Shown here: positions 7,437-38,703 of the stretch, piece after piece
Layout: every line of letters begins with the position of its first letter
Numbering within the stretch: the stretch's first letter is position 1
Assembly: GCA_024404505.1 (NCBI GenBank)
Contig: JAKSPU010000004.1
Span: 1-59,206, forward strand
DNA: 59,206 bases
Origin: Clostridia bacterium
Lineage (GTDB): Bacteria > Bacillota > Clostridia > Oscillospirales > CAG-272
Direction: 5' to 3'
Position numbers and translations under genes: made by a program
Notes under the pieces: model-generated
Told to the model about the DNA's origin: nothing
Seen by the model: only the letters and a program-made list of their open reading frames with translations
The model's database searches: none

Positions 7437-9269
7437 TTACTCTGCATACCCATACGAATAAGCGAGCCGTCCTATGGGAGCGCTGTCGCCGCTGACGTAG
7501 TAGTCCATTATGTCGAACTGTTCGGTGACGTTGTCGGCTGCCTTGAAGCGGATGAGGCTGCCGGGCTGCACGCCGAGGAGGGACCACGGGATCGAGAGAA
7601 ACAGGTCCTTCCCTTCGAGCTTCATTCCGGCCGTGCCGACCGTCTTCCATTCGCCGTCCTTGAGCTGCTCGATCGACGTTTTGCCGTCCGACGGGCTGCG
7701 GTTGACGATAAAATCGAAGCCTGCGAAGGACTCATCGGCACCTGTGGAAAGGAGCAGATTCATCCAGCCCGTGTCCCCTTCCTCGTATGCGGTGATTTCC
7801 TCCGCGCAGGTCACGCGGACGTACAGATTCTTCTCGTCGTGGATCACGCGGATCCCGGCGATATCGTTGCGGTCGGAATCGTCCCTGTACAGGTACGTGC
7901 CTGCGGCATCAAAGTGACGGCGGGTCATGCAGTCGCCGACAAAATCGGCATACGCGACGGCACGGTCCCACGCAGGGTCCCCGGCCCCCTTCTCGATGCG
8001 GACGGATGCTATCGGAAGCGCGTAAGCAGCCGCATCGGTGTACTTGTACCGCCGAACGTTCTCAAGCAGCTGGAGATAGTAATTGTCCCCGTATCCGCCC
8101 TTCATCATCTCGATGTCGCGGCTGTATTCGTGATTGTACACGTCAACGAACTTGTTCGGTCCGAGATGCTGCGCCTGCCACTCGTTGAAGCTGGCACAGA
8201 GAACGAGCGTTACCTTGTCATCGTTTGCGTGGACGGTATCCCACATATCCTGGAACGAACGACCGGCGGTCCAATCGTCCTCGACCCTGCCCGTCACGTT
8301 GTTGTACGCGCGGCTGGATTCCGGGTGCATGAGAGACGCGTCGATGCCCGTGTGGCTGTGCTGGGCAACGGGACAGGCGATCGCGCCGTTGTGGATGTAC
8401 TGCGGGTATTCCCAGCTCATCCACGGCAGACCGTTGTCATTGTTGTCGCCGTTCGGCCACTGCGATTCACGGATCTCGAAGTATTCCTTCATCTTCCACC
8501 CGACGAAGGAGGCCTCGCCGCCATACTTGACCATGTCCGACGCGTTGTTGTTGTCCTTGGTCGTCGCAACGATCAGCGGTTTTCCGTGCGGCTTGAACCA
8601 CAGGTCGTCCCACTCCGGATGCGCTTCGTAGTAGGCTGCGTACAGCTTGTCCACGGTCGTCGCGGAATCCGTGTTGGTGTAGAAGCTGACCTTCGGGACG
8701 TCGAAGCCCTGCTGCGAGAAGTTGGTCAGCACGGACATCAGAACGTTCACGACGTCCTCGTATATGAACTTGTTCGTCGCGTCGATGCAGAGGAAGTCGA
8801 CGCCCGCCATGGTCAGAAGCTCCATGTGGCGCGTGACGACCCACGGGTCCGTCATGCTGTAATAGCCGTACAGCGGCTCTCCCCAGAAGTAGAACTGACC
8901 GTAATCCGAAACGTCGTTCAGCTGTGCGATGCCTTCCTCTCCTTCGTCGATCAGCTCCTGAATGTTGTTGATCTGCCGGGTCAGCTCGGGATGCTGACCG
9001 AGCCAGAGCGAGTAGAAGACGCCGACGTACCGCTCACCGTCTTTCTTCGCGTCGGCAGCCTGCCAGGTACGTCCGAGCGCGTCCGAGCCGGACAGGCTCA
9101 TGACGGCGTTTTGCTGCGGCGTCAGGCCGCGCTCATCTCTTTCTCCCACGGTATATTCCTCCTTTGATCCGCAGCCTGTGAGTGCTGACAGGAGGGCTGC
9201 CGTCGTCAGAAGGACGCACAGCCCGACCGACAGGCCCCTCGGCAAACGGTGATTCCGATCTTGTTTCAT
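7437..9269 (-). CDS. Lipoprotein, GH99/GH71-like putative glycoside hydrolase
   Basis: Lipobox LTGC; YVGVFY, WGEPLYGYY..D.WV, AGVDF..D.TN, SFNEW, SRDIE. Confidence 0.7.
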   Translation of the reverse strand: MKQDRNHRLPRGLSVGLCVLLTTAALLSALTGCGSKEEYTVGERDERGLTPQQNAVMSLSGSDALGRTWQAADAKKDGERYVGVFYSLWLGQHPELTRQINNIQELIDEGEEGIAQLNDVSDYGQFYFWGEPLYGYYSMTDPWVVTRHMELLTMAGVDFLCIDATNKFIYEDVVNVLMSVLTNFSQQGFDVPKVSFYTNTDSATTVDKLYAAYYEAHPEWDDLWFKPHGKPLIVATTKDNNNASDMVKYGGEASFVGWKMKEYFEIRESQWPNGDNNDNGLPWMSWEYPQYIHNGAIACPVAQHSHTGIDASLMHPESSRAYNNVTGRVEDDWTAGRSFQDMWDTVHANDDKVTLVLCASFNEWQAQHLGPNKFVDVYNHEYSRDIEMMKGGYGDNYYLQLLENVRRYKYTDAAAYALPIASVRIEKGAGDPAWDRAVAYADFVGDCMTRRHFDAAGTYLYRDDSDRNDIAGIRVIHDEKNLYVRVTCAEEITAYEEGDTGWMNLLLSTGADESFAGFDFIVNRSPSDGKTSIEQLKDGEWKTVGTAGMKLEGKDLFLSIPWSLLGVQPGSLIRFKAADNVTEQFDIMDYYVSGDSAPIGRLAYSYGYAE

Positions 9270-9291: not shown

Positions 9292-12200
9292 TCAGAAATC
9301 CTTTTTTCTGCGCTTGGTCATAGCGGCACCGGCGGCGAGCAGCACGGCAGGCGCTGCGGCTGCGAGCGCGCTGCTGCAGCCCTTACCGGACGTTTCCGTG
9401 CCGGCCTCGCTTTCAGGTGCGTCCGTGACGACGGTTTCCGGTCCGGCGGTTTCATCGTCCGTTTCGGGCAGCGTTTCCGGTGCCGGAATGACGCTGCTGT
9501 ACGTGAAGCGGAAGCGTCCGCAGGGTGCGGTGTCACCGTCGTTGTAGACGCTCATGAGATCGCCGTCCGCAAGGTTGTTGTCCGCCCACTTGAAGTTGAT
9601 CACGAAGTCTCGTCCGTCGATCCCAAGTGCCGCTCTCGGCACGGCGATCTGAAGCAGGTTCCCGGCGACCGTGTAGTCGATCTCCGCGGCGCTCTCCCAG
9701 CTCCAGCCGCCCGTCGACTTCTCCAGCAGAGCCTTTTCATCGGGTGACGTCCGGTTGACGACGTACCCGAAGGTCTCCCATGCGGGAGCGTCGCTGCCCT
9801 CTACGCCGATGAACAGACGCATCCACAGCGGGTCGGAGGAAGGTGTCAGCGCGTCCTTGGTCGTCACCATAAAATAAACGTTGTTCTCGTCGTAGGTGAC
9901 CTTGGAGGACACGATGTCGTTGCGTCCGGTGGTATTGTCGTAATGGTATCCCTGATATCCGTCCGCGTTCCGGACGCCGGTATTGTCTGCGTAGGTGCGG
10001 AATTCGGGCTGGATGTCCGCCCACTGCTCCGCGCCGGCGTGCAGGTCGATGGTCTTTGCGATATTGGCGGGTGCCTGCGGCTCCACGCCCTTATACTGAC
10101 GGATAAAGGACACCATCTGATAGTAGTAATGATCCTTCAGCACACCGTTCGACGGCTCGATGTCCCGGCTGAAGCCGGCTGTCGCGTTATCGGGGAGTGC
10201 GTTGGTCGTTCCCCACATTTCGTCATAGCGTCCGGCGACCCATTCGTTCCAGCCGGTTATGTAGATGAAGGAGGGATCGACAGAAAGCGCATACTCGAAC
10301 TGATCCTTGAAGTTATACCCCCAGAGGATGGCGTCATCGGTGGGGACAAGGCAGCCCTTTTCGATCGAGTAGGCGCGGCCGTACTGATCGTCGTATCCGG
10401 CGTTCATGGCGGTAAGGCCCTTCGCGTCGCTCCAGTTCTGTGCCACGCTGACGCTCATTTCCTCCACAATCGACTTATCCTTTACGTTCAGCATGGATTG
10501 CTGCGGGTATACCGAGATCCACTTCCAGAAGGTATACTTGCGGAGCAGCGAGGAGTCGGGCGACCACGACGTCGTGATCCTTCCGTTCTCGATGATCTGG
10601 CGGTAATCCTGCGTGTAGCAGGGATTGATCGGACGCCACGAGAAGAATTCATAGATCTCCTTGTCGTGCGCGTCGTGCAGATCGAGTCCGGACGGGCTTC
10701 CTACCATGAGAGGCTTGCCCTCCCACAGGAACCACAGGTCCTTATAAAGACCCTTGGAATAGATGTTGTCGTACAGCTCGCGGATCTGCGTGGCTGCCTG
10801 ATCGTACTGGAACATATTCAGCATCGCGCTGATACCGGGGGCCTTCACACCGTCGTTCCGCGCCTCTGACCAGACCTCAAGCAGCTCGTTGATGGCCGCC
10901 ATGTAATTCTCCGTGCCGTTGGTATTGTCAAAAATGACCACGTCGATGTCGGCGTCCGCCAGCAGCTCAGCCTGATTCCGCAGCACCCAGCGATCTACGC
11001 CGTTATTATAGTAGCCCCATACAGGCTCGTCCCAGAACACGGTGGTGATCCCGTTCCACGCGGGATGCTTATAATCGTTCCGCGCCTCCGGGTACTGCTC
11101 GATGGTCAGCGTACCGTTGATGATCTTGTTCCGGTAGTGCGAGGAGTGCCATGTGTGGTAGAAGATGCCGACGTATTTATCGCGTCGGGGACCGGCAGCA
11201 GCAGCGTCCGTGACCGTGCGTCCGAGGCCGTCGACAGCCGTCCATACGCCCGGATTGATGAATTCAGTCGGCAGCGCGGCGCCGAGCGGTGTGAACTGTC
11301 CCTTGAAGCCGCAGAGACGTGCGACAAGCGACAGGCCGCAGGCGGAGCCGTTGACGTACAGCTCGGACGTATCGGACGCGAGTTCTACCGTGCAGACCTG
11401 CATATTGGTGACGCCGTGACGGACAATGAAGAGGTATTCTCCGGCAGGAAGCTCCGCGGGGAGCTTGGCCCACGTGCCTCTTTGGATCCCGCTGACGGTC
11501 TCCGAGGCTGCGGGGGCTTCCGCGACGGTCTTCTGATAACTTCCCTTCCACGCATACAGGGACAGATCAAGCGTATTGCCCGAGGCATCCGACGGAGCGG
11601 CAGGGATATACACCTCCGCGCCGGTGAACGTGTCGTCCACATTGAAGCGGATACCGTACTGATCGTTGTACGCCATCTCCCGGCGGGCAAAATCACCGGC
11701 GGGGTACAGGTCGGACGGCGTGGGGTCCACGTCGTTTTTCGACAGATTGCTGATCGGCAGGAAGGAGAAGTCCTCGCCGATATACTTGACCTTGACCATG
11801 GGCGCCTGATCGATGACCTGATCGTCACGGAAGGTGCGGATATTCTCCACGGTCTCTTTGGCGGTCCAGATGCCGACCTGCTCGCCCTGAACGCTCTGAT
11901 TCTCGATGTAGAAGAGATACTCGCCCGCGTCAGCATAGCTGTCGCAGGTGACGGTCAGCGTGGCGTTGTCGTTGAAGTCGACCCACGTGCGCGAAGCGAC
12001 GGGCGTGCCGCGCAGCGTTGCCTCGTAGGAATCCGCCCATCTGTACAGAGACAGGCGCAGCGTGCCTTTATTGTTGTTGTAGCTCGGGCAGGCGGCGTTG
12101 ACCTCCTTGATCGGCAGGGGCGAATTGAACTGTACAGCAAAGGTACTCATGATCTCAATGGCTTGTCCCTGATTCCCCGAGTAAGCGTCTGCGTAGCCCG

Positions 12201-12738
12201 TCACCTCGGATATCTTTACGTCCTTGGGAGCAAACTTGAGTCCCTGGATGTTGGGACCGTCCGCCTTGGACATGATTGTGAAGGTGTGCGTGCCGGCAGG
12301 CAGGTCGATCTCGGCGGGGGTGGTATCCTTCCACGAACGCCATCCGGCGCCCGGCACCTGATTCTTCAGCGTGCCGATCTCCTCTCCGTCGAGCAGGAAC
12401 ACGAAATTGCCGCCCGCGACGTTATCGGCCCAGCCGGTGACGAGACAGACCTGATAAGTGCCGGCCGCACCGACCTGTATCTCGACGCTGATGGTGTCTC
12501 CGACGCGGACCGCGTCGAAATACGGCTCGGGACACAGATTCTTTTCGATATAGATACGGTCGGCCGAGCTGCCGTTATAGGTAAAATCCGAATAAGATTC
12601 CGCGAGGCTGATCTCGGTGACCGAGGTCGATGATACGGTGACGGTACCCTTTGCAAAAGCGGTGAGGGGTGCCAGCATACTGCCGGTCAGCAGCGCGGTG
12701 AGCGTCAGGCAGAGAGAGCGAAGCAGCGACTTTTTCAT
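9292..12738 (-). CDS. Secreted multimodular GH99/71-like hydrolase: CBM6/35-like domain, two repeated beta modules, catalytic domain, Cys-containing C-terminal anchor
   Basis: Signal peptide (..TAFA/K); YVGIFY, WDEPVWGYY, TGWNEW, SRDIEP; tail GKGCSS-hydrophobic-KRRKKDF. Confidence 0.75.
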   Translation of the reverse strand: MKKSLLRSLCLTLTALLTGSMLAPLTAFAKGTVTVSSTSVTEISLAESYSDFTYNGSSADRIYIEKNLCPEPYFDAVRVGDTISVEIQVGAAGTYQVCLVTGWADNVAGGNFVFLLDGEEIGTLKNQVPGAGWRSWKDTTPAEIDLPAGTHTFTIMSKADGPNIQGLKFAPKDVKISEVTGYADAYSGNQGQAIEIMSTFAVQFNSPLPIKEVNAACPSYNNNKGTLRLSLYRWADSYEATLRGTPVASRTWVDFNDNATLTVTCDSYADAGEYLFYIENQSVQGEQVGIWTAKETVENIRTFRDDQVIDQAPMVKVKYIGEDFSFLPISNLSKNDVDPTPSDLYPAGDFARREMAYNDQYGIRFNVDDTFTGAEVYIPAAPSDASGNTLDLSLYAWKGSYQKTVAEAPAASETVSGIQRGTWAKLPAELPAGEYLFIVRHGVTNMQVCTVELASDTSELYVNGSACGLSLVARLCGFKGQFTPLGAALPTEFINPGVWTAVDGLGRTVTDAAAAGPRRDKYVGIFYHTWHSSHYRNKIINGTLTIEQYPEARNDYKHPAWNGITTVFWDEPVWGYYNNGVDRWVLRNQAELLADADIDVVIFDNTNGTENYMAAINELLEVWSEARNDGVKAPGISAMLNMFQYDQAATQIRELYDNIYSKGLYKDLWFLWEGKPLMVGSPSGLDLHDAHDKEIYEFFSWRPINPCYTQDYRQIIENGRITTSWSPDSSLLRKYTFWKWISVYPQQSMLNVKDKSIVEEMSVSVAQNWSDAKGLTAMNAGYDDQYGRAYSIEKGCLVPTDDAILWGYNFKDQFEYALSVDPSFIYITGWNEWVAGRYDEMWGTTNALPDNATAGFSRDIEPSNGVLKDHYYYQMVSFIRQYKGVEPQAPANIAKTIDLHAGAEQWADIQPEFRTYADNTGVRNADGYQGYHYDNTTGRNDIVSSKVTYDENNVYFMVTTKDALTPSSDPLWMRLFIGVEGSDAPAWETFGYVVNRTSPDEKALLEKSTGGWSWESAAEIDYTVAGNLLQIAVPRAALGIDGRDFVINFKWADNNLADGDLMSVYNDGDTAPCGRFRFTYSSVIPAPETLPETDDETAGPETVVTDAPESEAGTETSGKGCSSALAAAAPAVLLAAGAAMTKRRKKDF

Positions 12739-12784
12739 TTGTTTGATCCTCCTTCAGGATGGGGTCAACTTCGGATCGTTCGTT

Positions 12785-13888
12785 TCAGGCGTCATACAAC
12801 GCGCCGAACAGGGCGCGCAGGATGGTGTGGACGTAGACGCGGATGCCGAAGTCGTTCGGGTGGTTGATGTTGTTGCCGAGGAAATCACGCATCCTTTTGC
12901 CCGTGGACTGCATCCACACGAACATCCCGTATACCGGAGCGACGACAGTCTGCGGATACTCGGCGGCAAGGCTGAACAGGATGTCCTCAAAGTACACCTG
13001 ATTGCCGACCCAGCAGGACTGCGGATTCGGCGTTTCAGCCGATTGCAGCAGCACCGTGCCGTCCGGATGCTCGGCGTAGAAGCGGCGGAGCATCTCCCCG
13101 ATTTGAGCCTTATATGCGACGGGCGGCGTGAAGCTGTCGTTGCCGCCGACGCGAAGCATCAGAAGGTCGATGTCCTTCCCTGCTATGCGCTTGTCCCACT
13201 CATCGAGGCAGTTCTCGGCTCTCCAGCCTCCGACAGCCTGATTCTCGAGTGAGACCGGGACTCCGAAGGTCTGACCGATCCACTCGGTCACGATATGCGG
13301 ATAGTCGGGCATACCGGGGTTGATGAAGCCGCCGTATTTCGTGCCGCTGGCACAGCAGCCGACGGCAACGCTGTCACCGTAGCACATGACGCTGACCGGC
13401 TTCCCCGCCCGGAGCTTTTCGAGCAGAGGGGCTGACGCAGCGCTCTGATCAGGAGGGATGAATCCGGTGTACGCGTCCCTGTGCGTATAAGTCACGGCGC
13501 ACTGTCTGTCGACGACCATGAACGGCTCACCGTAGATGATGTAGCGCTGCACCGTGCGGTCAAAATCATACTCAAGCTCGTCCCAATCGACGCCGATGCG
13601 GATATTGGGATCGTTAGGCTGTGTCGGGAAGTATTCATCCGGCTCCCAATAGGGGATGGACGAATCGGGCAGACGGTAGATCCGTCTGCCCTCGATACGG
13701 TAATCGACGCCCTCCCGGTAGGTGACGGAAAGGCGGTAGTCGCGGACGGTCACGGGGCCGTCCGGCTCATAGAGAAGCGTGGCGGCACCATCGGCACCGA
13801 CGAACATGATAGTCTCGTCCCAGACTCCGCACCCGCGCCAGATGGGGCGCAGGTGCAGGGCGGGCGTATAAGCTTCCGTTGTCATCAT
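12785..13888 (-). CDS. SGNH/GDSL hydrolase (putative carbohydrate esterase)
   Basis: Blocks YGDSV, AVGG, GGND, NHPND. Confidence 0.8.
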   Translation of the reverse strand: MMTTEAYTPALHLRPIWRGCGVWDETIMFVGADGAATLLYEPDGPVTVRDYRLSVTYREGVDYRIEGRRIYRLPDSSIPYWEPDEYFPTQPNDPNIRIGVDWDELEYDFDRTVQRYIIYGEPFMVVDRQCAVTYTHRDAYTGFIPPDQSAASAPLLEKLRAGKPVSVMCYGDSVAVGCCASGTKYGGFINPGMPDYPHIVTEWIGQTFGVPVSLENQAVGGWRAENCLDEWDKRIAGKDIDLLMLRVGGNDSFTPPVAYKAQIGEMLRRFYAEHPDGTVLLQSAETPNPQSCWVGNQVYFEDILFSLAAEYPQTVVAPVYGMFVWMQSTGKRMRDFLGNNINHPNDFGIRVYVHTILRALFGALYDA

Positions 13889-13902
13889 GACGTTCTCTCC
13901 TC

Positions 13903-15396
13903 TTACTGCAGCTTCTTGAGGATCTTTTCGATGTTACGGTCAAACCGCTTGGAGGCTGCGGTGTAGCCGGAGGAGAAGGTATCGCGGTTGTCGTTGACGG
14001 CAGTCTTGAAGAGCGGATAGAAGCCCAGCTCCTCGGAGAAGTACATAGCCATATCGAACACGCGGTTGTTGAAGAGCAGGTCGAGCATTTCGGCGGACTC
14101 GGCATCGCGTACGTTGCGGGAGGTCAGCATGACGTCGTAGTAAGCCGGCTTGAGCGTGAGGGAAGACATGGCGGCATACGCCTGCAGGGTGTCGGCGACC
14201 AGCTCAACCATATCCTCCTTGACGGCGGAGGTCACGCACAGGCAGGAGCCGCTCTCATGCGTCCAGGTCTTGTAGTTTTCCTGTGCCTTGTCATACTTCG
14301 GAACGGTCAGGACGCCGTAGTCTCCGGTCATCTCGCGGTTGAACGCATTGAGGTACAGCGCGCAGTCACCGAAGAACAGGCCGCGGCCGGACATGAACGC
14401 GGAATTGCCGAGGAACTCCTGTCCGGGAGGCGACATGAAGGTCGCGTTGTTGGCGTGATAGATGTTCTGGGCAAGACCCAGCACGGTCATGGCCTTGTCC
14501 ATCTGGTTGGAGTCGGAAAGGTACAGGACGGGAGAATCGGTGTCACGGCTGTTGATGATGTAACGGAGACCGGAGCCGATGAACAGAGTGTTGCCGTACT
14601 CCCACGTCGTCACGAAGCCGTAAGTATCGTTTGCGTCCATCTTGCCGTCGCCGTTGCTGTCGGAGGAAACGCCCTGGATGACCTTATTGAAGTAATCAAG
14701 CGTCCAATCACCGTTCTTGACGGTCGTATAGGGATCGGGGACGGTCTCGGCGTACTGACGCTGCATCTCCTTGTTGAAGATCAGCACGTAGGTCACGTCG
14801 TCGTCGCCCGTGTTGGCGTCACCGGTCATGAAGAAGATATTGCCGCCGAGCGAGAAATCTGCAGTACCGGCATCCCACCAGGGCTTTTCGAGATCGACGC
14901 CGAGCTTGATGAAGTCATACATATAGTTGTTGACGGAAAGCGGCACGGTCTCGAAAATGCGCTGGTTGACGATGTAGAAGTCGCCGGTACCGGTCTGCGC
15001 CTCGGTCTTGCACTGCTCGGAAGCGGAGTACGGGTCCTTGATGATGACCTCCAGCTCCATTTTGCACATATCCTCAAGTCGGTTGTTGCGCTCATAGACA
15101 GCGTCGTTGATGACCTGTGCGGAGCCGCCGTTGGGGTCGACCATACCGTTCACGGCGTCGACCTCGCTCTTGAAGACGTCCACGCCGAGGATGGTGAAGG
15201 TCTCACCGTTCCAGTCGATATCGAGAGACTCCAGCATTGCGTCGGCAGGGGACTTTGTCTCGCCCTCGGTGCCGGGCGCGTTCGTGGATTTGCCGTCCGT
15301 TTCCTCATCTTCTCCGTCTCCGTTGGCGCAGGAAGCGAGCGGGCAGACGAGAAGCGCGAGTGCCAGCAAAAGGGACATGAATTTTAGTTTTTTCAT
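13903..15396 (-). CDS. Extracellular solute-binding lipoprotein (carbohydrate ABC-type)
   Basis: Lipobox LASC; DAVYERN, KPWWD, GDWTLD, DSNGDGKMD, YGVLTVPKYD, PAYYD; start at MKKLK. Confidence 0.8.
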   Translation of the reverse strand: MKKLKFMSLLLALALLVCPLASCANGDGEDEETDGKSTNAPGTEGETKSPADAMLESLDIDWNGETFTILGVDVFKSEVDAVNGMVDPNGGSAQVINDAVYERNNRLEDMCKMELEVIIKDPYSASEQCKTEAQTGTGDFYIVNQRIFETVPLSVNNYMYDFIKLGVDLEKPWWDAGTADFSLGGNIFFMTGDANTGDDDVTYVLIFNKEMQRQYAETVPDPYTTVKNGDWTLDYFNKVIQGVSSDSNGDGKMDANDTYGFVTTWEYGNTLFIGSGLRYIINSRDTDSPVLYLSDSNQMDKAMTVLGLAQNIYHANNATFMSPPGQEFLGNSAFMSGRGLFFGDCALYLNAFNREMTGDYGVLTVPKYDKAQENYKTWTHESGSCLCVTSAVKEDMVELVADTLQAYAAMSSLTLKPAYYDVMLTSRNVRDAESAEMLDLLFNNRVFDMAMYFSEELGFYPLFKTAVNDNRDTFSSGYTAASKRFDRNIEKILKKLQ

Positions 15397-15439
15397 GGTA
15401 TTATTCTTCCTTTCCGCAAATATGGGTATCCCTGTATAC

Positions 15440-15468
15440 ATTATATATTTTTTCTCCGTGCTTGTCAA
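15440..15468 (-). promoter_or_regulatory. Consensus sigma70/SigA promoter for the SBP-SGNH-GH-GH unit
   Basis: Minus strand TTGACA (15468-15463), 17 bp, TATAAT (15445-15440). Confidence 0.75.
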
Positions 15469-15480
15469 TGAGTTTCCGTG

Positions 15481-15518
15481 AAAAAACGGGGCTGCCGCAC
15501 GAAAGTGCGGCAGCCCCG
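15481..15518 (-). terminator. Rho-independent terminator of the 18412-15557 gene
   Basis: CGGGGCTGCCGCAC-TTTC-GTGCGGCAGCCCCG followed by T6 on the minus strand. Confidence 0.85.
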
Positions 15519-15556
15519 CGCCCTTACCCGTTGCCGGGTATCGGAGCGTAAGCCGA

Positions 15557-18412
15557 TCAATACAGCTTAGCGGACAGGATGCGGTCGTTCTGAACGACTA
15601 CGAACAGAGTGTCACCGCAGACCTTGACGTACACGAACTGAGAGCCGGCGGAAAGGTCGGCGTCAGAGGTGACGTTGGCAACGGTCTCACCGGTGGTCTT
15701 GTCGACCACGTACAGAACGATGTTACCGGCCTGAGCCTTGGGAGCGACCAGCGCGTACTTATCGTACATACCGACAGCGTATGCGTTGGGAACGTCGTAC
15801 TCGGCGATAGAACCGTCGGAAGCAAGCACGGAAAGCTTGCCGCCGGTGGTAGCTGCATAGCAGGCACCGGCGGTATCGACGTCAAGGTAGAAGGACTCAG
15901 CCATAGCCTTGGAATCAACGACTGCGGGATTGGCGGCGTCGGTGACGTTCAGCTTGAACATCACGTTCTGCTTATCGGAGAACAGGTAAGCGATATACTC
16001 ACCGCCTACGTTGGCAACGCCGAGACCGTTCACACGCATGGACTTGCCGTCTTCAGCGCAGACACAGAGTCTGGAGACCTGAGTCAGGGTCTTGGCATCG
16101 TAGTCGATCTTATAGACCTCAAGGTAAACGTCGTTTTGGGAATCGTAGTTGGCAAGACCGACGTACAGGTAGCCGCGGTCGTCAACTGCGAGGCCCTTTG
16201 CGAATGCGTTGGCCTCGAAGGTGAGGTATGCAACGCGCTCGCCGGTGGCAACGTCGATCATGGAGACGTTGTTGGGGTTGGCGTTCAGGACGCCTGCAAA
16301 GAAGTACTTGCCGTCGGGAGAGAAGGCAGCACCGCGGGTGAAGCCTGCGACACCGAGCTGGTCAGCGTTGATGGCAAGGGTCTCCTGCAGCTTGACGTTG
16401 TTCCAGTCGATCTCGGGAGCAACGGGCTCAGCGGGCATGGACTTAGCGAAGTAAGCCTCTGCCTCCTCAGCGGTCTCGAAGAATGCGAACCATGCAACGT
16501 CGATGGAGCCGCCGTTGCCGAGGAAGTAGTCGAGACGGCAGTAGTTGCAGACGGAGGTATCGTTGAAGGAAGCGGAAGCGGTCATATCGACCACGAGAAC
16601 GTGCCACTCACCGTCGTTCTGGTACTCATAGCGTGCCTCGTCATCGCCGCCGTGCCAGCCGCCGGTGGAACCGATGAAGAACTCACCGCCGTTCGTGCCG
16701 GTGGTGCGATACTTGAGCGCACCGTACTTGGCAGACTTGGCGTTGGCGTTGAGGTTGACGACTGCGACGTAGGGGTCGCCGCCGTTGGAGGTAAGGGTGA
16801 TGAAGCCGTCGCCCATCTCAGCCGTGGTATGGGACACGGTGGAGCCGGTGCCGCCGTTGACCTGATCCATGATGAACTCGGGATAAACGATGTACACGGG
16901 ATCACCGGGGATAACGGTCTCGGACAGGGCCTTGACCTCGATAGAGGAGAAGAGAACGGTGGTTGCACGGGCAGTTGCACCGATATCGGAAGCAGCGTTA
17001 TCGACGACAAGCGTGTTCTCAACGGTGTTGACGGAGCCGTCAGCACCGGTCAGGGTAGCGGTCTTGACGAAGTGGACGTCCTGATTGGTGTGCAGACCTG
17101 CATACTCATCGATTGCGACGGAACCGTCGAGTGCGATGGAGACGAGCAGGGTCTTGCCGGCGTAGATGTTGACGACGTTGTTGTCATCGGTGATCAGGAT
17201 GTCACCGGTCTCGCAGGCATAGTTGAAGCGGTAGTTGGTAACACGGGACGGCCACTCGGCGTCATACGCCTTGATGGTGACGGTCAGACCGCCGTCGTTG
17301 CGGCTGATGCAGATGCCTGCACCTCCACAGGAGTTGCCTTCGGGATGACCGTCGGTCTCGTAGTAGTTGTTGATCGGGTAGAAGACCAGATCATTGATGT
17401 GCGTATCGGGACCAGCCACGTCATCGGAGGTGACGCCTTCGGTACCACGGACGAAGAAGTAAGCGCCTTCAGCGTTCTGGCACCAGAAGTCCTTCAGAGC
17501 AACAGAGTACTTACCGTCCATGGTCGTGACGAAGTCGCAGATACCGGCGAGCTTGTACTTGCCGTCCTCGATGCCGCACTGGTTGATGGGCAGCTCGGGG
17601 GTGAACAGGTTGAACAGGTCGGAGGAAGCGAAGTCGCTCTGGGAAGCGACGTCGGAGGTCAGGGACTTGGTCGCATCGCCGAGCACGGGCTTGCGGTAGT
17701 CGATGTTGACCTTGACGGAGGTGATGGCGACCATGGTGCCGTCAGCCAGCTTGTAGAGAGCGGTCAGGGTGTGATTACCGGACGGAATGGAGGAAACGTC
17801 TGCATAGATGTTGAAACGGGTTGCGAAGGTACCGCCGGCACCGGTCACAGCGGCGACGACACCATCTTCCGGATTAAAGAACCATTCCTCGCTGAAGACG
17901 GGCGCGTTCTTGTCGATGCGGTAGCCGAGGGCGGTGATGTCCTGCGTCGTGCCGATCCAACCCCAGAAGCGGACGGATGCGGAGTCGCTGGGGATGTCAA
18001 CGATCTCGGGGCAGGAAGCTGCCTGGCCAGGCGTGAAGAACGTGACGAGCTTATTGCCTTCAGCGTCCCAAGCCTCGCACTCGTCGAAGGACTTGGCAGC
18101 GAAGCAAGCCTTCTCGGCGTCGAGGTCGTAGATGCCGTCAGCGGGCTCGGTCTCAGCGGGCTCGGTGGGAGCCTCGGTTGCGGGCTCGGTGGGAGCGGCC
18201 GTTGCCGGCTCTGTGGGAGCATCCGTAGCGGGCTCGGTGGGAGCGTCGGTCGCGGGCTCGGTGGGAGCATCGGTCGCGGCCTGAGTGGGCTCGGCATCGG
18301 TGCCGGTCTCGGCGACGGTGGTACCGGTGTCGTCTCCGTTATTCTTACAAGCCACGAGGCAGGTCAGCATCATAGCGGAAAGAAGCAGGAGAGCAAGAAT
18401 TCTCTTGGTCAT
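15557..18412 (-). CDS. Large surface lipoprotein: TEP stalk, several beta-sandwich modules, C-terminal beta-propeller-like domain
   Basis: Lipobox LVAC; (ATDAPTEP)n; AFSPDGKYFFAG and KGLAVDDRGYLYVG blade-like motifs; start at MTKRIL. Confidence 0.75.
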   Translation of the reverse strand: MTKRILALLLLSAMMLTCLVACKNNGDDTGTTVAETGTDAEPTQAATDAPTEPATDAPTEPATDAPTEPATAAPTEPATEAPTEPAETEPADGIYDLDAEKACFAAKSFDECEAWDAEGNKLVTFFTPGQAASCPEIVDIPSDSASVRFWGWIGTTQDITALGYRIDKNAPVFSEEWFFNPEDGVVAAVTGAGGTFATRFNIYADVSSIPSGNHTLTALYKLADGTMVAITSVKVNIDYRKPVLGDATKSLTSDVASQSDFASSDLFNLFTPELPINQCGIEDGKYKLAGICDFVTTMDGKYSVALKDFWCQNAEGAYFFVRGTEGVTSDDVAGPDTHINDLVFYPINNYYETDGHPEGNSCGGAGICISRNDGGLTVTIKAYDAEWPSRVTNYRFNYACETGDILITDDNNVVNIYAGKTLLVSIALDGSVAIDEYAGLHTNQDVHFVKTATLTGADGSVNTVENTLVVDNAASDIGATARATTVLFSSIEVKALSETVIPGDPVYIVYPEFIMDQVNGGTGSTVSHTTAEMGDGFITLTSNGGDPYVAVVNLNANAKSAKYGALKYRTTGTNGGEFFIGSTGGWHGGDDEARYEYQNDGEWHVLVVDMTASASFNDTSVCNYCRLDYFLGNGGSIDVAWFAFFETAEEAEAYFAKSMPAEPVAPEIDWNNVKLQETLAINADQLGVAGFTRGAAFSPDGKYFFAGVLNANPNNVSMIDVATGERVAYLTFEANAFAKGLAVDDRGYLYVGLANYDSQNDVYLEVYKIDYDAKTLTQVSRLCVCAEDGKSMRVNGLGVANVGGEYIAYLFSDKQNVMFKLNVTDAANPAVVDSKAMAESFYLDVDTAGACYAATTGGKLSVLASDGSIAEYDVPNAYAVGMYDKYALVAPKAQAGNIVLYVVDKTTGETVANVTSDADLSAGSQFVYVKVCGDTLFVVVQNDRILSAKLY
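18140..18290 (-). repeat. Coding 24-bp tandem repeat (ATDAPTEP x~5)
   Basis: Recurring GGGCTCGGTGGGAGC on + strand; translation ATDAPTEP/ATAAPTEP/ATEAPTEP. Confidence 0.8.
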
Positions 18413-18633
18413 TGTTTTGTACCTCTCAATACAAATTCTCCCGATGCCGTAAACGCATTTTCCGGGAGTCAAATCGCATTATAGCACATTCCCGGCTTTT
18501 ATTCAATACTTTTTTTCATCGTCTTGAAAATATGTTGGAATCATCAATCTGCTCATCAGATTATTGTGCATTTTTACCATTTCACGACATTATTTCACCC
18601 TGCTTGGGAGGGCGGAATTATTTGCATCTTCTA

Positions 18634-18662
18634 TTGACACCTCCCTGCCTGTGTGCTATAAT
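18634..18662 (+). promoter_or_regulatory. Sigma70/SigA promoter for fucU
   Basis: TTGACA, 17 bp, TATAAT with TGn extended -10. Confidence 0.8.
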
Positions 18663-18702
18663 CAAATCGTAAAAAACAAACCCGGAAACGGAGGAATTCA
18701 TC

Positions 18703-19152
18703 ATGTTGAAAGGCATCCCGAAGCTGTTATCTCCCGAGCTGCTCAAGGTCCTGTGCGAAATGGGACACGGAGACCGCATCGTCATCGGTGACGGCAATTT
18801 CCCGTCAGAAAGCGTCGGCAGGAATGCCGCCGCTGTCATCCGGTATGACGGGCAAAGCATCCCCTCGCTGCTTGACGCCATACTGACTGTTTTCCCGCTC
18901 GACACCTATACCGACAAGCCCGTCCTGCTGATGGAGCTTATGGATCGGGACAAGGGCATCGTAGACACGCCGATCTGGGACGAGTACAGAGACGTCGTCG
19001 CGGCGCACGACGCCCGCGGCGCGGACGCCGTCGGCACCGTGGAGCGCTTTGCCTTCTACGACGAGGCGAAGAAGTGCTACGCCGTCATCGCCACCGGAGA
19101 GACCGCTATCTACGCAAACGTCATCCTGCAGAAGGGCGTCGTGACGGACTGA
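18703..19152 (+). CDS. fucU: L-fucose mutarotase (RbsD/FucU family)
   Basis: MLKGIPKLLSPELLKVLCEMGHGD..IGDGNFP; ERFAFY; TGE..YANVILQKGV. Confidence 0.9.
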   Translation: MLKGIPKLLSPELLKVLCEMGHGDRIVIGDGNFPSESVGRNAAAVIRYDGQSIPSLLDAILTVFPLDTYTDKPVLLMELMDRDKGIVDTPIWDEYRDVVAAHDARGADAVGTVERFAFYDEAKKCYAVIATGETAIYANVILQKGVVTD

Positions 19153-19230
19153 CCGTCCCCCTGCCCCGCTTTCCGGTCCCCGGCCCGAAATCAGCCGTTC
19201 CTGAAATTTTTATATATGGAGGATCACATT

Positions 19231-20958
19231 ATGGCTAAGCAAACTGACATCCGCGCCGTGACAGGCACGGACCGGCTCGGACGCGCCCTGCCCATATCGG
19301 GCGAGGTCCCCGCACTCCGCAAGGACCGATACGTCGGCATCTTTTACTTCCTCTGCCTCGACCAGCACGGCACGGACGGTCCCTACGACGTCGAGAAGAT
19401 CCTCGCCGCCGATCCGACAGCCGCTTGGGACGAAAAGAATCCGCTCTGGGGCCGCATCGACGGCGCCGCGCACCACTGGGGCGAGCCTCTGTTCGGCTAC
19501 TATTTTACGCGCGACGAGTGGGTCATCCGGAAGCATATCGAGATGCTTTCCTTCGCTGACGTCGATTTTCTCGTTTTCGACACGACCAACCGCGCCATTT
19601 ACAGGGACTCCGCGCTGAAGATCATGCGTATCCTCAACGAGTACGTTCAGGCGGGCGTAAAAGTGCCGAAGGTCGCGTTCATGACCAACACGCTGTCCGG
19701 CGAGACGGTCAATGAGATCTATAAGGAGATCTACGCCCCCGGGAATTACCCGGACACGTGGTTTATCTGGGAGGGCAAGCCGCTCATCATCGGCATCCCG
19801 GAGCAATGCTCTGACCATGCGCGTGATTTCTTCACCTTCCGCATCTCGCAGTGGCCGAACGAGGACCAGAAGCAGGACGGTTTCCCGTGGATGGAGTTCA
19901 TCCGTCCGCAGCGCGTCTTCCGGACCCGCGCGGGTGAAGCGGAGATCGTCAACGTCTCCGTCGCTCAGCATCCCAACTGCGCGCACAGCGACGGCGCGTT
20001 CTTCGGTGAGACCGACGCGTGGGGCCGTTCCTACCACAACGGCGCAATGGATACCCGCTTCCGCGCAACGGATTGGGGCTTCAACGTCGCCGAACAGTGG
20101 GAGTATGCCATGTCCAAGGACCCGAAGATCATCTTCCTGACCGGCTGGAACGAATGGACGGCCGGGCGCTGGAGCTGGGACCGCTCGGGAGAGATGTCCT
20201 ATACCGTCTCCAACGAGGAAGGGCAGACCGTGCATTACGTCCGGCCTCCCCGTCCGTACATCCGCCATACCTTCTGCGACTGCTGCAACGAGGAGTACAG
20301 CCGCGACATCGAGCCGATGAGAGGCGGATACTTTGACAACTACTACCTCCAGATGATCTCCAAGATCCGCGAGTTCAAGGGTATGCCCGAAATGCCCGCA
20401 GATGAGATGCCCGCGGACGGTCACGGCTGGTCTGAGGGCATCGGATACAGCGATTATCCCTTCGGCAACGCACACAGATCCTGCCGCGGCTTCGGAAAGA
20501 ACTTCTACGAGAACACGTCCGGCGTCAACGATATCCTCGACATGACGGTCAGCGCGTCCGCACGCGCCCTGCGCTTCACCGCGGAATGTGCCGCGGACAT
20601 TGTGCGGACGGGATCGTGGATGCGCCTCCTCGTACACGTCGGAACAGAACGCTCCGCCGCCCCGTGCGGCTACGAGTACGTCGCCAACTTCGGCAAGTCG
20701 GAATCCGACCGTGCCATGCTCGCCAAATGGAACGGCACCGCTTACGAGCCGGTCTGCTCGATCCCGATGTCCGTCGAAGGCGCGAAGATCACGCTGATCC
20801 TGCCCCGGCGTTCTCTGGGACTTACGGACAGCTCACCCGTATCGCTCACGTTCAAGTGGGCCGATCAGGTCGGTGATGCGCCGACGGTCGAGGACTTCTA
20901 TACGGAGGGCGACACCGCGCCCTACGGCCGTCTCTCCTACAGATATGAGATCAAGTGA
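19231..20958 (+). CDS. Cytoplasmic GH99/71-like putative glycoside hydrolase (no signal peptide)
   Basis: YVGIFY, WGEPLFGYY, DVDFLVFDTTN, TGWNEW, YSRDIEP; paralog of 7437 and 9292; GGAGG RBS. Confidence 0.7.
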   Translation: MAKQTDIRAVTGTDRLGRALPISGEVPALRKDRYVGIFYFLCLDQHGTDGPYDVEKILAADPTAAWDEKNPLWGRIDGAAHHWGEPLFGYYFTRDEWVIRKHIEMLSFADVDFLVFDTTNRAIYRDSALKIMRILNEYVQAGVKVPKVAFMTNTLSGETVNEIYKEIYAPGNYPDTWFIWEGKPLIIGIPEQCSDHARDFFTFRISQWPNEDQKQDGFPWMEFIRPQRVFRTRAGEAEIVNVSVAQHPNCAHSDGAFFGETDAWGRSYHNGAMDTRFRATDWGFNVAEQWEYAMSKDPKIIFLTGWNEWTAGRWSWDRSGEMSYTVSNEEGQTVHYVRPPRPYIRHTFCDCCNEEYSRDIEPMRGGYFDNYYLQMISKIREFKGMPEMPADEMPADGHGWSEGIGYSDYPFGNAHRSCRGFGKNFYENTSGVNDILDMTVSASARALRFTAECAADIVRTGSWMRLLVHVGTERSAAPCGYEYVANFGKSESDRAMLAKWNGTAYEPVCSIPMSVEGAKITLILPRRSLGLTDSSPVSLTFKWADQVGDAPTVEDFYTEGDTAPYGRLSYRYEIK

Positions 20959-21032
20959 ACCAAATATCCTTATTGGGGAAGACTTTTTTCACATAAAAGT
21001 AAAATTCTGACCATATCACCGCAAATACTGAC

Positions 21033-21061
21033 TTGACAAACGTTCCAAAATTTGTTAAAAT
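21033..21061 (+). promoter_or_regulatory. Sigma70/SigA promoter
   Basis: TTGACA, 17 bp, TAAAAT with TGn extended -10. Confidence 0.7.
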
Positions 21062-21102
21062 TACATAGGATTTACTATTATATTCCAGAAGGAGGCATAT
21101 CT

Positions 21103-22875
21103 ATGAAATTCAACCGCAGATCCGCGCTCTCCCTGTTCTCTCTGCTGCTGATCGCAGCCATGCTGTCTTCCACGTTCGTATGCCCCGTGTCCGCCGATGA
21201 GGACGGTCAGAAATCCGAAAACCGAGTCGTCGCACATTGGAAATTCCAGAACGATCCTGCGTACGTATCCGGTGACATCAACACCGATGATCTCACCGTC
21301 AAGGACATCTCCGGCAACGGCAACGACCTCGTCGTTGTCTCCGAGGGCAACGGTGATCAGCTCGATATCTTTTCGTGGGATAACGGTGTCAATCCCCAGA
21401 CCCTTGAAAGCGATGCCCGCGTGACTGCGCTCAAATTCGACAACAGCCTTGCCAAGGCAAAGTCCGTCGACCCTTACGAGGCCGACCAGACCGCGTACAG
21501 CGGCGCTTACGTCTCCGGTAAGTATCTCGAGACCGTGAGCAGCGCCCCGATCAACAACTTCTCCACGCCCACCGGCTGGACGGTCGAGATCATCTTCATG
21601 ATTTCCCCCGAGTTCAACAACAACTACAACCGCTACACCGGCCTGTTCTCCCGTCAGGGCGTGGTCGAGAGCCAGAACGAGCCTGCCTTCTCCATGGCTG
21701 TGACCGAGCTGTGCTCGGGCGGTGAAGCGGACGGCGCGCTCGGCACAACCGGCGCCACCGGCTATCAGTACCTCCACGTCGACGTCGATGAAAACAAGAG
21801 CAACCACGAGGAACTGAACGGCTCCCTGTTCGCGGACACGTGGCATCACTACATGGTCACGAGCGACGGTGAACTCACCGATATCTACATCGACGGCGAG
21901 TACATCACCTCGTACACCGAGAACAACCAGATCTACATCACCGACCCCAATTTCAGCTGGGAAGTCGGTGTCGGCCGTAAGCTCAAGGGCGAAAACGCCA
22001 CGATGAACGAGGAGTATCCCGAGGGACTCATCCGCCGTCTCTTCTGCGGCACCATCTCCGAGATCCGCTTCTGCGAGGATTACATGGATATCGAGAACTC
22101 CCTGTTCTATACCGGTGACGTCCCCGGTGCCGATGAACAGGAAACGTCCGCTCCCGCCGCGAAGCCCAAGCTCACCAACGACAACGTCATGGATATGTGG
22201 GATCCCGATGCCATCGGCAACATCTTCCCCGCCACCGGCAGCCAGACCAACGCCAGCCTCTGTGAGGAAGGTCTGCTGCTTGAGTACACCGGTGACGAGA
22301 CCACCTCTCCCGACCCGTTCTACACCTACCCCATCGCCGCGTACTACAAGAAGACCTCCAGCACCATGCCCGATCCCGAAAAGTGCAACTACGTCACCAT
22401 CAAGATGAAGCCCGAGAACTGCGACGGTATGTTCCAGTTGTTCACGCAGGCTCCGAACGAGGCCAATTCCGAAACGGTTGAGTACACGCCCGAGGATATG
22501 CACGAGGACGGCTGGTATTACCTGATGTTCGATATGTCGCTCACCGACCTTGTCGATCAGAGAAAGCTGTCCACCATACGTCTGGACTGGTCCTGCGGCA
22601 ATACCACCGTCGGCGCGAACATGATCATCGGCGCGATCGGCTTCTTCGAGGAGGAGAAGGACGCGTGCGAGTGGTGCGGCATCGAGTACGTCACCATGGC
22701 GCCGAAGACCAAGGCCCCCGCTACCGAGGCGCCCGATCCCGTGACCGAAGCTCCCACCGATGAGGCTGTCACCGATCCCGGGAAGTCCGGCTGCGGCTCG
22801 ATCATCACGTCCGGTGCCGCTCTCGTCATGATGGCAGCCGCTGCCGCCGTGGCGCTTGGCAGAAAGCACGACTGA
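21103..22875 (+). CDS. Secreted LamG/ConA-like domain protein with Cys-containing C-terminal anchor
   Basis: Signal peptide ..VSA/D; VVAHWKF, KDISGNGND, WHHY..T.DG...IYIDG, FCGTISEIRF; tail KSGCGS-hydrophobic-RKHD. Confidence 0.75.
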   Translation: MKFNRRSALSLFSLLLIAAMLSSTFVCPVSADEDGQKSENRVVAHWKFQNDPAYVSGDINTDDLTVKDISGNGNDLVVVSEGNGDQLDIFSWDNGVNPQTLESDARVTALKFDNSLAKAKSVDPYEADQTAYSGAYVSGKYLETVSSAPINNFSTPTGWTVEIIFMISPEFNNNYNRYTGLFSRQGVVESQNEPAFSMAVTELCSGGEADGALGTTGATGYQYLHVDVDENKSNHEELNGSLFADTWHHYMVTSDGELTDIYIDGEYITSYTENNQIYITDPNFSWEVGVGRKLKGENATMNEEYPEGLIRRLFCGTISEIRFCEDYMDIENSLFYTGDVPGADEQETSAPAAKPKLTNDNVMDMWDPDAIGNIFPATGSQTNASLCEEGLLLEYTGDETTSPDPFYTYPIAAYYKKTSSTMPDPEKCNYVTIKMKPENCDGMFQLFTQAPNEANSETVEYTPEDMHEDGWYYLMFDMSLTDLVDQRKLSTIRLDWSCGNTTVGANMIIGAIGFFEEEKDACEWCGIEYVTMAPKTKAPATEAPDPVTEAPTDEAVTDPGKSGCGSIITSGAALVMMAAAAAVALGRKHD

Positions 22876-37887: not shown

Positions 37888-38703
37888 ATGGACCACAAAG
37901 TACGACTCGGGCTGTACGAAAAAGCGATGCCCGGGGATATATCCATCCGCGACAAGCTGCTGCTCACCCGCCGCTGCGGCTTCGACTGGATGGAGATCAG
38001 CATCGACGAAACGCCGGAAAAGATGGGACGCGTGTTCGCCCCCGCAACGGCAGCAGCCATTGCCCGCGACGTGCGGGAAACGGGAGTGCCGATCGACACG
38101 ATGTGCCTCTCCGGCCACCGTAGATTCCCGCTCGGCGAGGAGGATCCCATGAATCTGGAGCTTATGTACCGTGCCGTCGATTTCGCCCGCACGGTCGGCA
38201 TCCGAATCATCCAGCTGGCGGGATACGATACCTATTACCATCCCTCCACGGAGGAAACAGCGTCCCGCTTCGGCGAAAACCTCCGGCGCGCGGTCGCATA
38301 CGCCGCCGCGAAAGGCGTCTGCCTCGGCTTTGAGACCATGGAAACGCCGTTTATGAACACCACGGAAAAGGCGATGCGGTACGTCACGGCGGTCGACTCC
38401 CCTTGGCTCGGCGTGTACCCGGACATCGGCAACGTCACGAACGCCGTCCCGGATGCCTGCGCCGACCTCGAAACGGGACGCGGTCACATCTTCGCCGCAC
38501 ATCTCAAGGAAACGAAGCCCGGCATCTTCCGTGACCTTGAATTCGGTCAGGGGCGCGTGGACTTCGACGCCTGCATCCGCACGCTGCTGTCCATTGGCGT
38601 CACGATGTTCAACTGCGAATTCTGGTACGACGGACACACCGATCCCGAAACATACATAAGGAGGAACGCAGACTATGTCAAAGCGGTATTTGCTCGGACT
38701 TGA
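37888..38703 (+). CDS. ulaE: L-ribulose-5-phosphate 3-epimerase (UlaE/SgbU)
   Basis: LGLYEKAMP, GFDWMEISIDET, MCLSGHRRFPLG, IQLAGYD, YPDIGN, HLKET. Confidence 0.9.
   Translation: MDHKVRLGLYEKAMPGDISIRDKLLLTRRCGFDWMEISIDETPEKMGRVFAPATAAAIARDVRETGVPIDTMCLSGHRRFPLGEEDPMNLELMYRAVDFARTVGIRIIQLAGYDTYYHPSTEETASRFGENLRRAVAYAAAKGVCLGFETMETPFMNTTEKAMRYVTAVDSPWLGVYPDIGNVTNAVPDACADLETGRGHIFAAHLKETKPGIFRDLEFGQGRVDFDACIRTLLSIGVTMFNCEFWYDGHTDPETYIRRNADYVKAVFART

Follow-up and report, generated by a model that had tools for sequence, protein, structure and literature searches.

A Gly-Cys C-terminal tail on secreted proteins of an uncultured gut Clostridia bacterium and its co-occurrence with a linked Lgt-CPBP gene pair

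The stretch of DNA analyzed here, 59,206 nucleotides of contig JAKSPU010000004.1 from a Clostridia bacterium of the order Oscillospirales (assembly GCA_024404505.1) and hereafter called the window, raises a question: why do two secreted proteins that are otherwise unrelated end in the same way, and what machinery might recognize that shared end? The first-pass annotation of the window had read it as a sortase-independent, Cys-dependent tripartite signal of the MYXO-CTERM kind that works together with a CPBP-family enzyme, and this reading is supported by the results below. About 50 proteins that this uncultured gut bacterium secretes, most of them sugar-degrading, carry one and the same tail, and the tail co-occurs, within the genus and beyond it, with a pair of adjacent genes for an Lgt-family transferase and a CPBP-family protease. 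We consider it probable that the tail belongs to a Gram-positive, MYXO-CTERM-like system, in which Lgt-type lipidation of the tail Cys would be followed by CPBP removal of the C-terminal helix and by lipid-anchored display.

The first of the two genes (9292-12738, minus strand, defined by its open reading frame and translation) encodes a protein of 1148 aa. Its Sec signal peptide of 29 aa (12652-12738, minus strand) ends in ...TAFA and has no lipobox. At the other end of the protein, an acidic stalk rich in T, E, and P, about 35 aa long (9382-9486, minus strand; limits approximate), leads to a Gly-Cys dipeptide (9376-9381, minus strand; Cys codon 9376-9378), which we propose as the lipidation site, with cleavage just after it. 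The 27 residues that follow the Cys, namely, S-S, about 18 hydrophobic residues forming a predicted membrane helix, and KRRKKDF before the stop (9292-9375, minus strand), would be the part removed. The whole C-terminal end, at 9292-9390, reads SGKGCSSALAAAAPAVLLAAGAAMTKRRKKDF followed by the stop. The second gene (21103-22875, plus strand) encodes a ConA-like/Laminin_G_3-like protein of 590 aa counted from its ATG (Pfam Laminin_G_3, 27.3 bits against a cut-off of 27.6). Its Sec signal peptide of 31 aa (21103-21195, plus strand) ends in ...PVSA, again without a lipobox; a stalk of about 30 aa rich in T, E, P, and A (22699-22788, plus strand; limits approximate) precedes the Gly-Cys (22789-22794, plus strand; Cys codon 22792-22794), and G-S, a hydrophobic helix, GRKHD, and the stop make up the remainder (22795-22875, plus strand), the 26 residues after the Cys again being the part proposed to be removed. 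This end, at 22783-22875, reads KSGCGSIITSGAALVMMAAAAAVALGRKHD followed by the stop. Both signal peptidase sites are predictions, that of the 1148-aa protein being placed from its A-x-A-like end. The translations thus bear out what had been noticed, namely, the Gly-Cys, the helix, and the basic end on two Sec-secreted, lipobox-free proteins, and the two are indeed otherwise unrelated, with 17% identity in a forced alignment. The 1148-aa protein contains only a weak CBM35-like region (Pfam CBM_35, 21.3 bits against a cut-off of 28).

The tail is not limited to these two proteins. In the genome they come from (G000; 2.95 Mb in 229 contigs, 60.7% G+C, 89% complete), a C-terminal regular expression applied to 10,468 stop-to-stop open reading frames of at least 100 aa returned 56 matches, 48 of which were retained by a linker and hydrophobicity filter. 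A signal-peptide-like N terminus was recognized, by a crude heuristic, in 47 of these 48 proteins, the exception being truncated by a contig end. Alignment A1 comprises 42 of the tails, and its profile matches 52 C-termini among the same open reading frames, scoring 53.1 bits on the tail of the 1148-aa protein and 57.9 bits on that of the 590-aa protein. The pattern is present in this genome far beyond chance, as the expectation of many such tails genome-wide had it. Its layout is a T/E/P stalk, Gly-Cys, x-[SA], about 20 hydrophobic residues, and a cluster of K and R, with the core motif [DGK]-[KSGE]-G-C-[KGSAR]-[SA]-[VAS]-[LIV]-[GAS]; 24 to 34 residues (median, 26) follow the Cys, and an additional Cys lies within the helix in 25 of 50 tails. 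Gly and Cys are invariant in all 42 tails of the alignment. Since the collecting expression demanded a G, at most one residue, and then a C, the invariance of the Cys is partly by construction; that all tails are G-C, when G-x-C was permitted, is not. The cargo carried on the 42 tails is diverse and glycan-active, in agreement with the idea that glycan-active proteins are being displayed, and includes Laminin_G_3 (7 proteins), GH2 (3), GH28 (2), and F5/8-type C (2) domains, together with GH32, GH106, NPCBM, and others.

The tail is also retained among homologues of the two window proteins, as would be expected if its Cys matters. An orthologue of the 1148-aa protein in a genome of the same genus (G003), 47% identical over the full length, keeps it, and among the 120 top homologues of the 590-aa protein, 84 have a C-terminal Gly-Cys tail. 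Another 25 of the 120 have a plain helix anchor or no tail at all. The remaining 11 (P0082, P0088, P0090, P0092, P0093, P0095, P0096, P0099, P0105, P0106, and P0115) carry a different tripartite tail, AP[QN]TFD followed by a hydrophobic helix and K/R; no NCBIfam CTERM model matched the four of these tails that were tested, and the AP[QN]TFD tail may represent one more sorting signal outside the curated set, possibly a variant of the sortase kind. Sorting signals behave in just this way, with one cargo bearing ends that can be exchanged.

Comparison with curated signal models (NCBIfam release 20.0) gave no assignment. Every match of the 1148-aa protein's tail was below cut-off, including MYXO-CTERM (TIGR03901, 13.3 to 13.8 bits against 20; TIGR03382, 13.0 against 15.85) and LPXTG_anchor (13.5 against 15.9, spanning the helix and basic part alone), and the tail of the 590-aa protein had no match. 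The two MYXO-CTERM models, TIGR03901 and TIGR03382, were matched by 2 and 3 of the 42 tails, respectively, at E ≤ 1. The tail has the tripartite layout and invariant Cys of MYXO-CTERM and scores below the cut-offs of the curated hidden Markov models for it. The model that occurred most often among the 42 tails, GVDTG_CTERM, matched 13 of them with a best E-value of 6.8e-4, and the matches overall were spread over 33 families, a scatter that points to a generic likeness of helix-plus-basic ends. The tail is thus captured by no NCBIfam sorting-signal model above cut-off, and Pfam reported no SLH domain in either window protein; the claims that LPXTG and SLH are absent and that existing CTERM models would not account for the tail both held. 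The tail proteins also do not have the classical N-terminal lipobox [LVI][ASTVI][GAS]C, their signal peptides being of the signal peptidase I type. The window does encode lipoproteins, and the count of eight given for it was reproduced under a loose lipobox rule, most of them with an acidic T/E/P/D stalk after the Cys, all in genes other than those of the tail proteins; a strict lipobox expression had returned five.

What might act on such a tail? No sortase or rhomboid was matched in the 89% complete genome, and exosortase gave a single 12.6-bit match, below cut-off and with internal stops. The genome has five CPBP genes and two Lgt genes. Outside the window, on contig C186, one of each lie together: an Lgt paralogue (Lgt2; 37930-38832) and a CPBP (CAAX-protease) gene (38829-39632) share a 4-nt overlap, and a tail-protein gene is located about 4 kb upstream of them. 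The candidate machinery would be this translationally coupled pair, in which a divergent member of the Lgt transferase family is joined by a glutamic intramembrane protease of the CPBP/Rce1 type.

The CPBP protein belongs to its Pfam family (PF02517, 62.7 bits against a cut-off of 22.4) and scores below the myxosortase cut-offs (Mrt_core NF040914, 18.1 against 100; MrtJ NF033192, 24.4 against 75); it was placed in no curated CPBP subfamily. Its residues E127, E128, R132, F161, H165, and H209 are invariant in 21 orthologues and D213 is present in at least 90% of them, leaving intact the motifs EExxxR, FxxxH, and HxxxD, which, with the last in the general form HxxxN/D, we take to be the named CPBP catalytic motifs. 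In its AlphaFold model, which is confident (predicted local distance difference test, 86.3; predicted template modeling score, 0.85), the top Foldseek match is Rce1 (4cad_C; probability, 0.94; template modeling score, 0.46 to 0.48), with a weak E-value of 0.28. Lgt2 likewise belongs to the Pfam LGT family (PF01790, 99.6 bits against 24.9) and scores below the Lgt equivalog cut-offs (TIGR00544, 73.3 against 118.9; NF000778, 110.2 against 334). Its sequence alone matched no solved structure. Mapped through Lgt1 (35% identity) onto the solved Escherichia coli Lgt, its residues R149, R219, E223, and R226, which are invariant among orthologues, align to the GR-G arginine and the Y..R...E..R helix; the arginines of these two motifs in the E. 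coli enzyme are presumably catalytic, R143 and R239 being essential. A GR.GC...GCCYG motif in Lgt2 was considered as a changed active site and rejected, as Lgt1 has the same motif, which is a lineage trait. A complex prediction for Lgt2 with the CPBP (score, 0.00; mark, 0.32) speaks neither for nor against binding.

Across genomes, the tails co-occur with one specific CPBP family, as the suspected CPBP link would have it, and this CPBP comes with its Lgt. Our relatives sample comprised 41 genomes: G000, 24 others of the same genus (G001 to G024), and one from each of 16 other families in the order. Tails were found in all 24 of the genus genomes (4 to 65 matches each), a CPBP orthologue (53 to 64% identity) in 23 of them, and an Lgt2 orthologue (49 to 69% identity) in 23, and in 23 the Lgt2 and CPBP genes are adjacent, in that order and on the same strand, mostly with an overlap of 4 to 8 nt. 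In the 16 genomes of other families, neither orthologue was found, and tail matches were absent from 12 and limited to one or two weak ones (E ≥ 0.006) in the other 4. A search over GTDB species located 234 stretches with a relative of this CPBP, and among the best 80 of the 234, which were examined as loci, an Lgt2-type gene is directly upstream of the CPBP on the same strand in every one (80/80), over a range of identities from 64% to 39%. At least 22 of the 80 also have a Gly-Cys-tail gene within the 6-kb flanks, mostly directly upstream of Lgt2, including such distant loci as L126, L129, L134, L136, and L141. Ten distant CPBP-positive genomes, two of which are identical with G148 and G244 of the broader samples below, all had tail matches (2 to 23). 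Rare variants of the dipeptide were seen in tail genes beside the enzyme pair, with Ser-Cys at L085:6988-8913(-) and Lys-Cys at L182:368-2140(+).

The same pattern was obtained in broader samples. Among 300 other genomes of the order (30 families, 153 genera; up to 24 tail candidates scored per genome), the CPBP was found in 6, belonging to genera g20, g22, and g27 of family f1 and genus g83 of family f5, and exactly those 6 have 4 to 8 tail matches; 281 of the 294 CPBP-negative genomes have none and 13 have one weak hit. Family f1 genomes of nine other genera (n = 12) are negative for both CPBP and tails. Among 398 other genomes scored from the class, the CPBP was found in 4, all of other orders, and these have Gly-Cys tail matches as well: 14 in G475, 24 in G653, 2 in G549, and 3 in G715, the tails of the last three genomes having been verified by eye. 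Only two CPBP-negative genomes of the class sample, G603 and G697, have more than one tail hit. They were considered as exceptions and rejected, since their five hits, which are weak, are Cys-less PQTGD/ATGD tails (L189 to L193), and no CPBP of the linked family was found in either. The T/E/P stalks that bear these sortase-type tails closely resemble the stalks of the Gly-Cys proteins. Multicopy or inspected Gly-Cys tails are thus confined, in the order and class samples, to the ten CPBP-positive genomes. With the gaps taken up below, the criterion of Haft, no signal without enzyme and no enzyme without signal, describes what was found. Compact same-strand cassettes were observed in G202 (tail, tail, Lgt2, CPBP, tail), G109 (tail, Lgt2, CPBP), and G653 (tail, Lgt2, CPBP, with a further tail gene downstream), and the lineages concerned number at least four at the family level (f1, f5, f45, and f94, plus f96).

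The Lgt that accompanies the CPBP is distinguishable from the ordinary one. By Pfam LGT score the Lgt proteins fall into three classes: canonical (209 to 271 bits), "B" (124 to 147 bits), and CPBP linked (92 to 118 bits). The canonical class is present in nearly all genomes of the relatives sample, in which the linked class is confined to the genus, and all five of the other positive genomes have a canonical Lgt elsewhere in addition to a linked one. In a maximum-likelihood tree built from 10 canonical, 10 B-class, and 32 linked sequences (the last out of 84), the linked Lgts form one clade (100/98) and the canonical ones another (100/99), and the linked clade arises from within the B-type paralogues. 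The only Lgt of G549 is sister to the linked clade. On sequence grounds, then, the CPBP-linked Lgt is best described as a dedicated extra paralogue, apart from the canonical Lgt. That it might be the only Lgt of the genus was considered and rejected when a Pfam search revealed canonical Lgts that the protein query had missed. A canonical Lgt (>200 bits) was not found in six genomes, G000, G008, G019, G022, G023, and G024. Four of these, G000, G008, G019, and G024, have a B-type Lgt (124 to 141 bits; in G000 at C31:5578-6435(-)) together with the linked one, and G022 and G023 have the linked Lgt only, besides a weak 57.9-bit match in G022.

Sortase is distributed differently. No sortase domain was found in any of the 25 genus genomes (G000 and G001 to G024), in keeping with a sortase-independent system, and among the 16 genomes from other families, 15 gave between one and five matches. 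The tail system thus has neither the LPXTG-type motif nor the sortase gene that would define the LPXTG/sortase pathway. Replacement of sortase was nonetheless rejected as a general rule: it applies to the genus and to G109 only. Because sortase coexists with the Lgt-CPBP pair in four of the five other positive genomes, sortase loss together with tail expansion is particular to the genus (and G109).

Based on these observations, we hypothesize the following route. After Sec export and cleavage by signal peptidase I, the C-terminal helix would stop transfer with its K/R cluster inside. The Lgt paralogue would then put a lipid, probably diacylglycerol, on the Cys thiol at the outer membrane face, and the CPBP would cleave directly behind the lipidated Cys, in the way that Rce1 cleaves behind a prenyl-Cys, and remove the helix. 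The C-terminal lipid would hold the protein on the outer leaflet, where the stalk could pass through the wall and display the glycan-active domains. The proposed two-step route mirrors the working model for MYXO-CTERM sorting, as far as the available portions of the relevant papers describe it (PMC11980579; 10.1101/2023.06.07.544157). In its most specific form, which we put at slightly under an even chance, the proteins would be "reverse lipoproteins": Lgt2 would diacylglycerylate a Cys that precedes a C-terminal helix, in inverted orientation and without a lipobox, the CPBP would remove the helix, and the result would be a third route of surface display.

Several points weigh against this hypothesis. 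What the sequences themselves establish is the signal, with its abundance and conservation, and the gene pair, with its intact catalytic residues and its co-occurrence and adjacency with the tails; the lipidation, the cleavage, their order, the lipid, and the topology of the enzymes are what we infer from them, and the structural match of the CPBP to Rce1 has the weak E-value given above. The genome has 169 lipobox candidates, with Leu at -3 in 109 of them and A, G, or S at -1, whereas the Gly-Cys tails are polar at -3, have Gly at -1, and show no lipobox; judged by these residues, the tail is not a displaced lipobox, and it would meet an Lgt-type enzyme in inverted topology relative to known Lgt substrates. 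The CPBP has no neighboring Lgt in G475, G549, and G715, and G475 and G715 have canonical and B-type Lgts only, none of the linked clade. One genus genome, G018 (88% complete), has 34 tail matches, and neither enzyme gene was found in it. CPBP-negative genomes also gave 18 uninspected weak tail hits, each the only one in its genome, of which 13 came from the order sample and 5 from the class sample, and the dipeptide has the rare Ser-Cys and Lys-Cys variants noted above. Finally, the positive f1 genera may form a single clade, so that the genome counts overstate the number of independent co-occurrence events.

One alternative is that the same pair serves the same signal by other chemistry, such as a double anchor (Cys lipidated, helix retained), a CPBP cut without prior lipidation that releases the enzymes from the cell, or transfer of something other than diacylglycerol. 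In its favor are the inferred order and nature of the steps, the three genomes in which CPBP and tails occur without a linked Lgt, and the further Cys within the helix of half the tails. We regard it as unlikely, though it fares best among the alternatives, because Lgt and CPBP occur together in all 80 loci, mostly overlapping, an arrangement that suggests that both steps act on one substrate, and because Rce1-type enzymes act after Cys lipidation, as stated in the available portion of PMC11980579.

A second alternative is that the pair matures ordinary N-terminal lipoproteins, in the manner of LnsB-like N-acylation, and that common descent or linkage alone accounts for its co-occurrence with the tails. 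Lipoprotein N-acylation in Staphylococcus aureus requires LnsB, a CPBP-like protein, according to the part of PMC7387801 available to us, and the genomes are lipoprotein rich, as the 169 candidates in G000 illustrate. LnsB, however, is described in that source as being without the CPBP catalytic residues, which are invariant in the linked CPBP, and the tails track the pair, so that LnsB-type N-acylation fits poorly; the co-occurrence is patchily distributed and spans several families and orders, lipobox-free tail genes are in the same cassettes as the pair, and relatives with lipoproteins lack the pair. We consider this alternative improbable. Very improbable, in our view, is that the tail is a stop-transfer anchor only, with the Gly-Cys serving for helix capping, a disulfide, or metal binding and with the pair unrelated to it: homologous cargo does occur with motif-free, plain C-terminal helix anchors, but the dipeptide is invariant across unrelated cargo and orders, as is typical of an enzyme recognition site, and the tails show strict co-occurrence and physical adjacency with the pair. 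We give the least credence to covalent attachment of the Cys to the wall or a surface polymer by a sortase-like transfer without lipidation, since, even though the lack of sortase in all 25 genus genomes (against its presence in 15 of 16 from other families) would allow the tail system to have assumed sortase's task and the long stalks suit wall-spanning display, a CPBP enzyme is a hydrolase whose active site uses Glu and His and lacks an acyl-enzyme Cys, its partner here belongs to the Lgt family of lipid transferases, and sortase stands alongside the pair in four of the five other positive genomes.

The lipidation-and-cleavage route that we favor can be placed among known systems. With MYXO-CTERM/MrtX, as with JDVT-CTERM/MrtJ, SYNERG-CTERM, and CGP-CTERM, the tail shares a tripartite signal, an invariant Cys beside the helix, a basic end, dozens of substrates per genome, a CPBP-family enzyme found by co-occurrence and neighborhood, and the proposed sequence of Cys lipidation and a cut after it. 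In MYXO-CTERM sorting, the CPBP MrtX cleaves, and does so in a Cys-dependent manner; the lipidating enzyme is called "unknown" in the available portion of the same paper, with an "Lgt-like acyl-transferase" proposed as the leading guess (PMC11980579). The Clostridia system differs in that its host presumably has one membrane, so that no type II secretion step is involved, in having a single G-C-x-[SA] motif and a CPBP outside the curated myxosortase family, and in having a dedicated Lgt paralogue in the same operon, in contrast to the MYXO-CTERM lipidating enzyme just mentioned. It would thus work like MYXO-CTERM sorting, falls below the curated models for both signal and enzyme, and adds a dedicated Lgt.

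The lipoprotein pathway of Lgt and LspA offers a second comparison, with an Lgt-family enzyme, a small residue before the Cys at the outer face, an adjoining helix, and an intramembrane protease that removes the helix to leave a lipid-anchored, stalk-borne protein, as we propose for the tails. Here the tail is instead C-terminal, inverted, and without Leu at -3, the protease would be a CPBP rather than LspA, and the linked Lgt forms a clade separate from, and additional to, the housekeeping enzyme. LPXTG/sortase signals are likewise tripartite C-terminal signals on Sec-exported Gram-positive surface proteins, and homologous cargo in other lineages ends in sortase-like PQTGD tails; the Gly-Cys tails differ in having no LPXTG-like motif, another type of enzyme, and presumably a lipid anchor in place of wall linkage. 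Eukaryotic and archaeal CaaX processing by Rce1, with the same protease fold and motifs, provides the model for a cut after a lipidated Cys, except that the Cys here is followed by about 26 residues, a whole helix among them, instead of 3, the reaction would take place at the outer face, and the lipid would presumably be diacylglycerol from an Lgt-type enzyme rather than a prenyl group.

In open-access papers and preprints, taken without their supplements, we came across neither a Cys-type C-terminal signal described for Clostridia or Firmicutes, in agreement with the initial impression that none was known for Clostridia, nor an Lgt-CPBP operon; the words "Firmicutes," "Clostridi," "Bacillota," and "Lgt" do not occur in the available portion of the Haft preprint (10.1101/2023.06.07.544157). 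The coupling of an Lgt to a sorting protease in 80 of 80 loci suggests an answer to the question of MYXO-CTERM lipidation, which the available portion of PMC11980579 leaves open, and the system makes that question directly testable. If our hypothesis is true, this would be the first genetic identification of a lipidating enzyme class for all Cys-type C-terminal signals, MYXO-CTERM included, and a third major route of Gram-positive surface display, one with about 50 substrates that in one genus has apparently replaced sortase. Cys-type C-terminal sorting would then reach Gram-positive gut bacteria, for which the textbook routes are sortase and N-terminal lipoproteins. In herbivore and human gut Clostridia, dozens of glycoside hydrolases and lectin-like proteins would be flagged as located at the cell surface, which matters for modeling fiber and glycan degradation by these abundant uncultured bacteria. 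Three ready profile families also emerge, for the tail, the CPBP clade, and the Lgt clade, none of which NCBIfam release 20.0 captures above cut-off.

The distribution of the genes bears on their history as well. The Lgt2 of G202 (L151, family f5) nests inside the f1 clade, and the CPBP of G475 (L174), from another order, reaches 315 bits, above the score of every genome sampled from the same family outside the studied genus; together these suggest that the substrate-Lgt-CPBP cassette may have moved horizontally between families and orders.

Some minor features were observed near the genes discussed above. On contig C186, a second CPBP gene (40898-41908, plus strand) is located 1.3 kb downstream of the Lgt2-CPBP pair and is similar to MroQ and to the CPBP portion of ABC-permease/CPBP fusions (73 bits, below cut-off). 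Elsewhere in the genome, four tandem paralogues of about 520 to 570 aa (C152:7612-14926) have near-identical tails, ...DEGCKSVIGGC..., with a second Cys five residues past the first. In the window itself, the C-terminal half of the 1148-aa protein is paralogous to the neighboring lipoprotein at 7437-9269, and three paralogous copies of one unassigned module can be recognized (7437-9269, minus strand; 9292-12738, minus strand; 19216-20958, plus strand) by common stretches such as ...YVG.FY... and ...GEP..GYY.... The first two of these genes adjoin, and the ends of the three copies differ, being an N-terminal lipobox, the C-terminal Gly-Cys tail, and no signal peptide, respectively.

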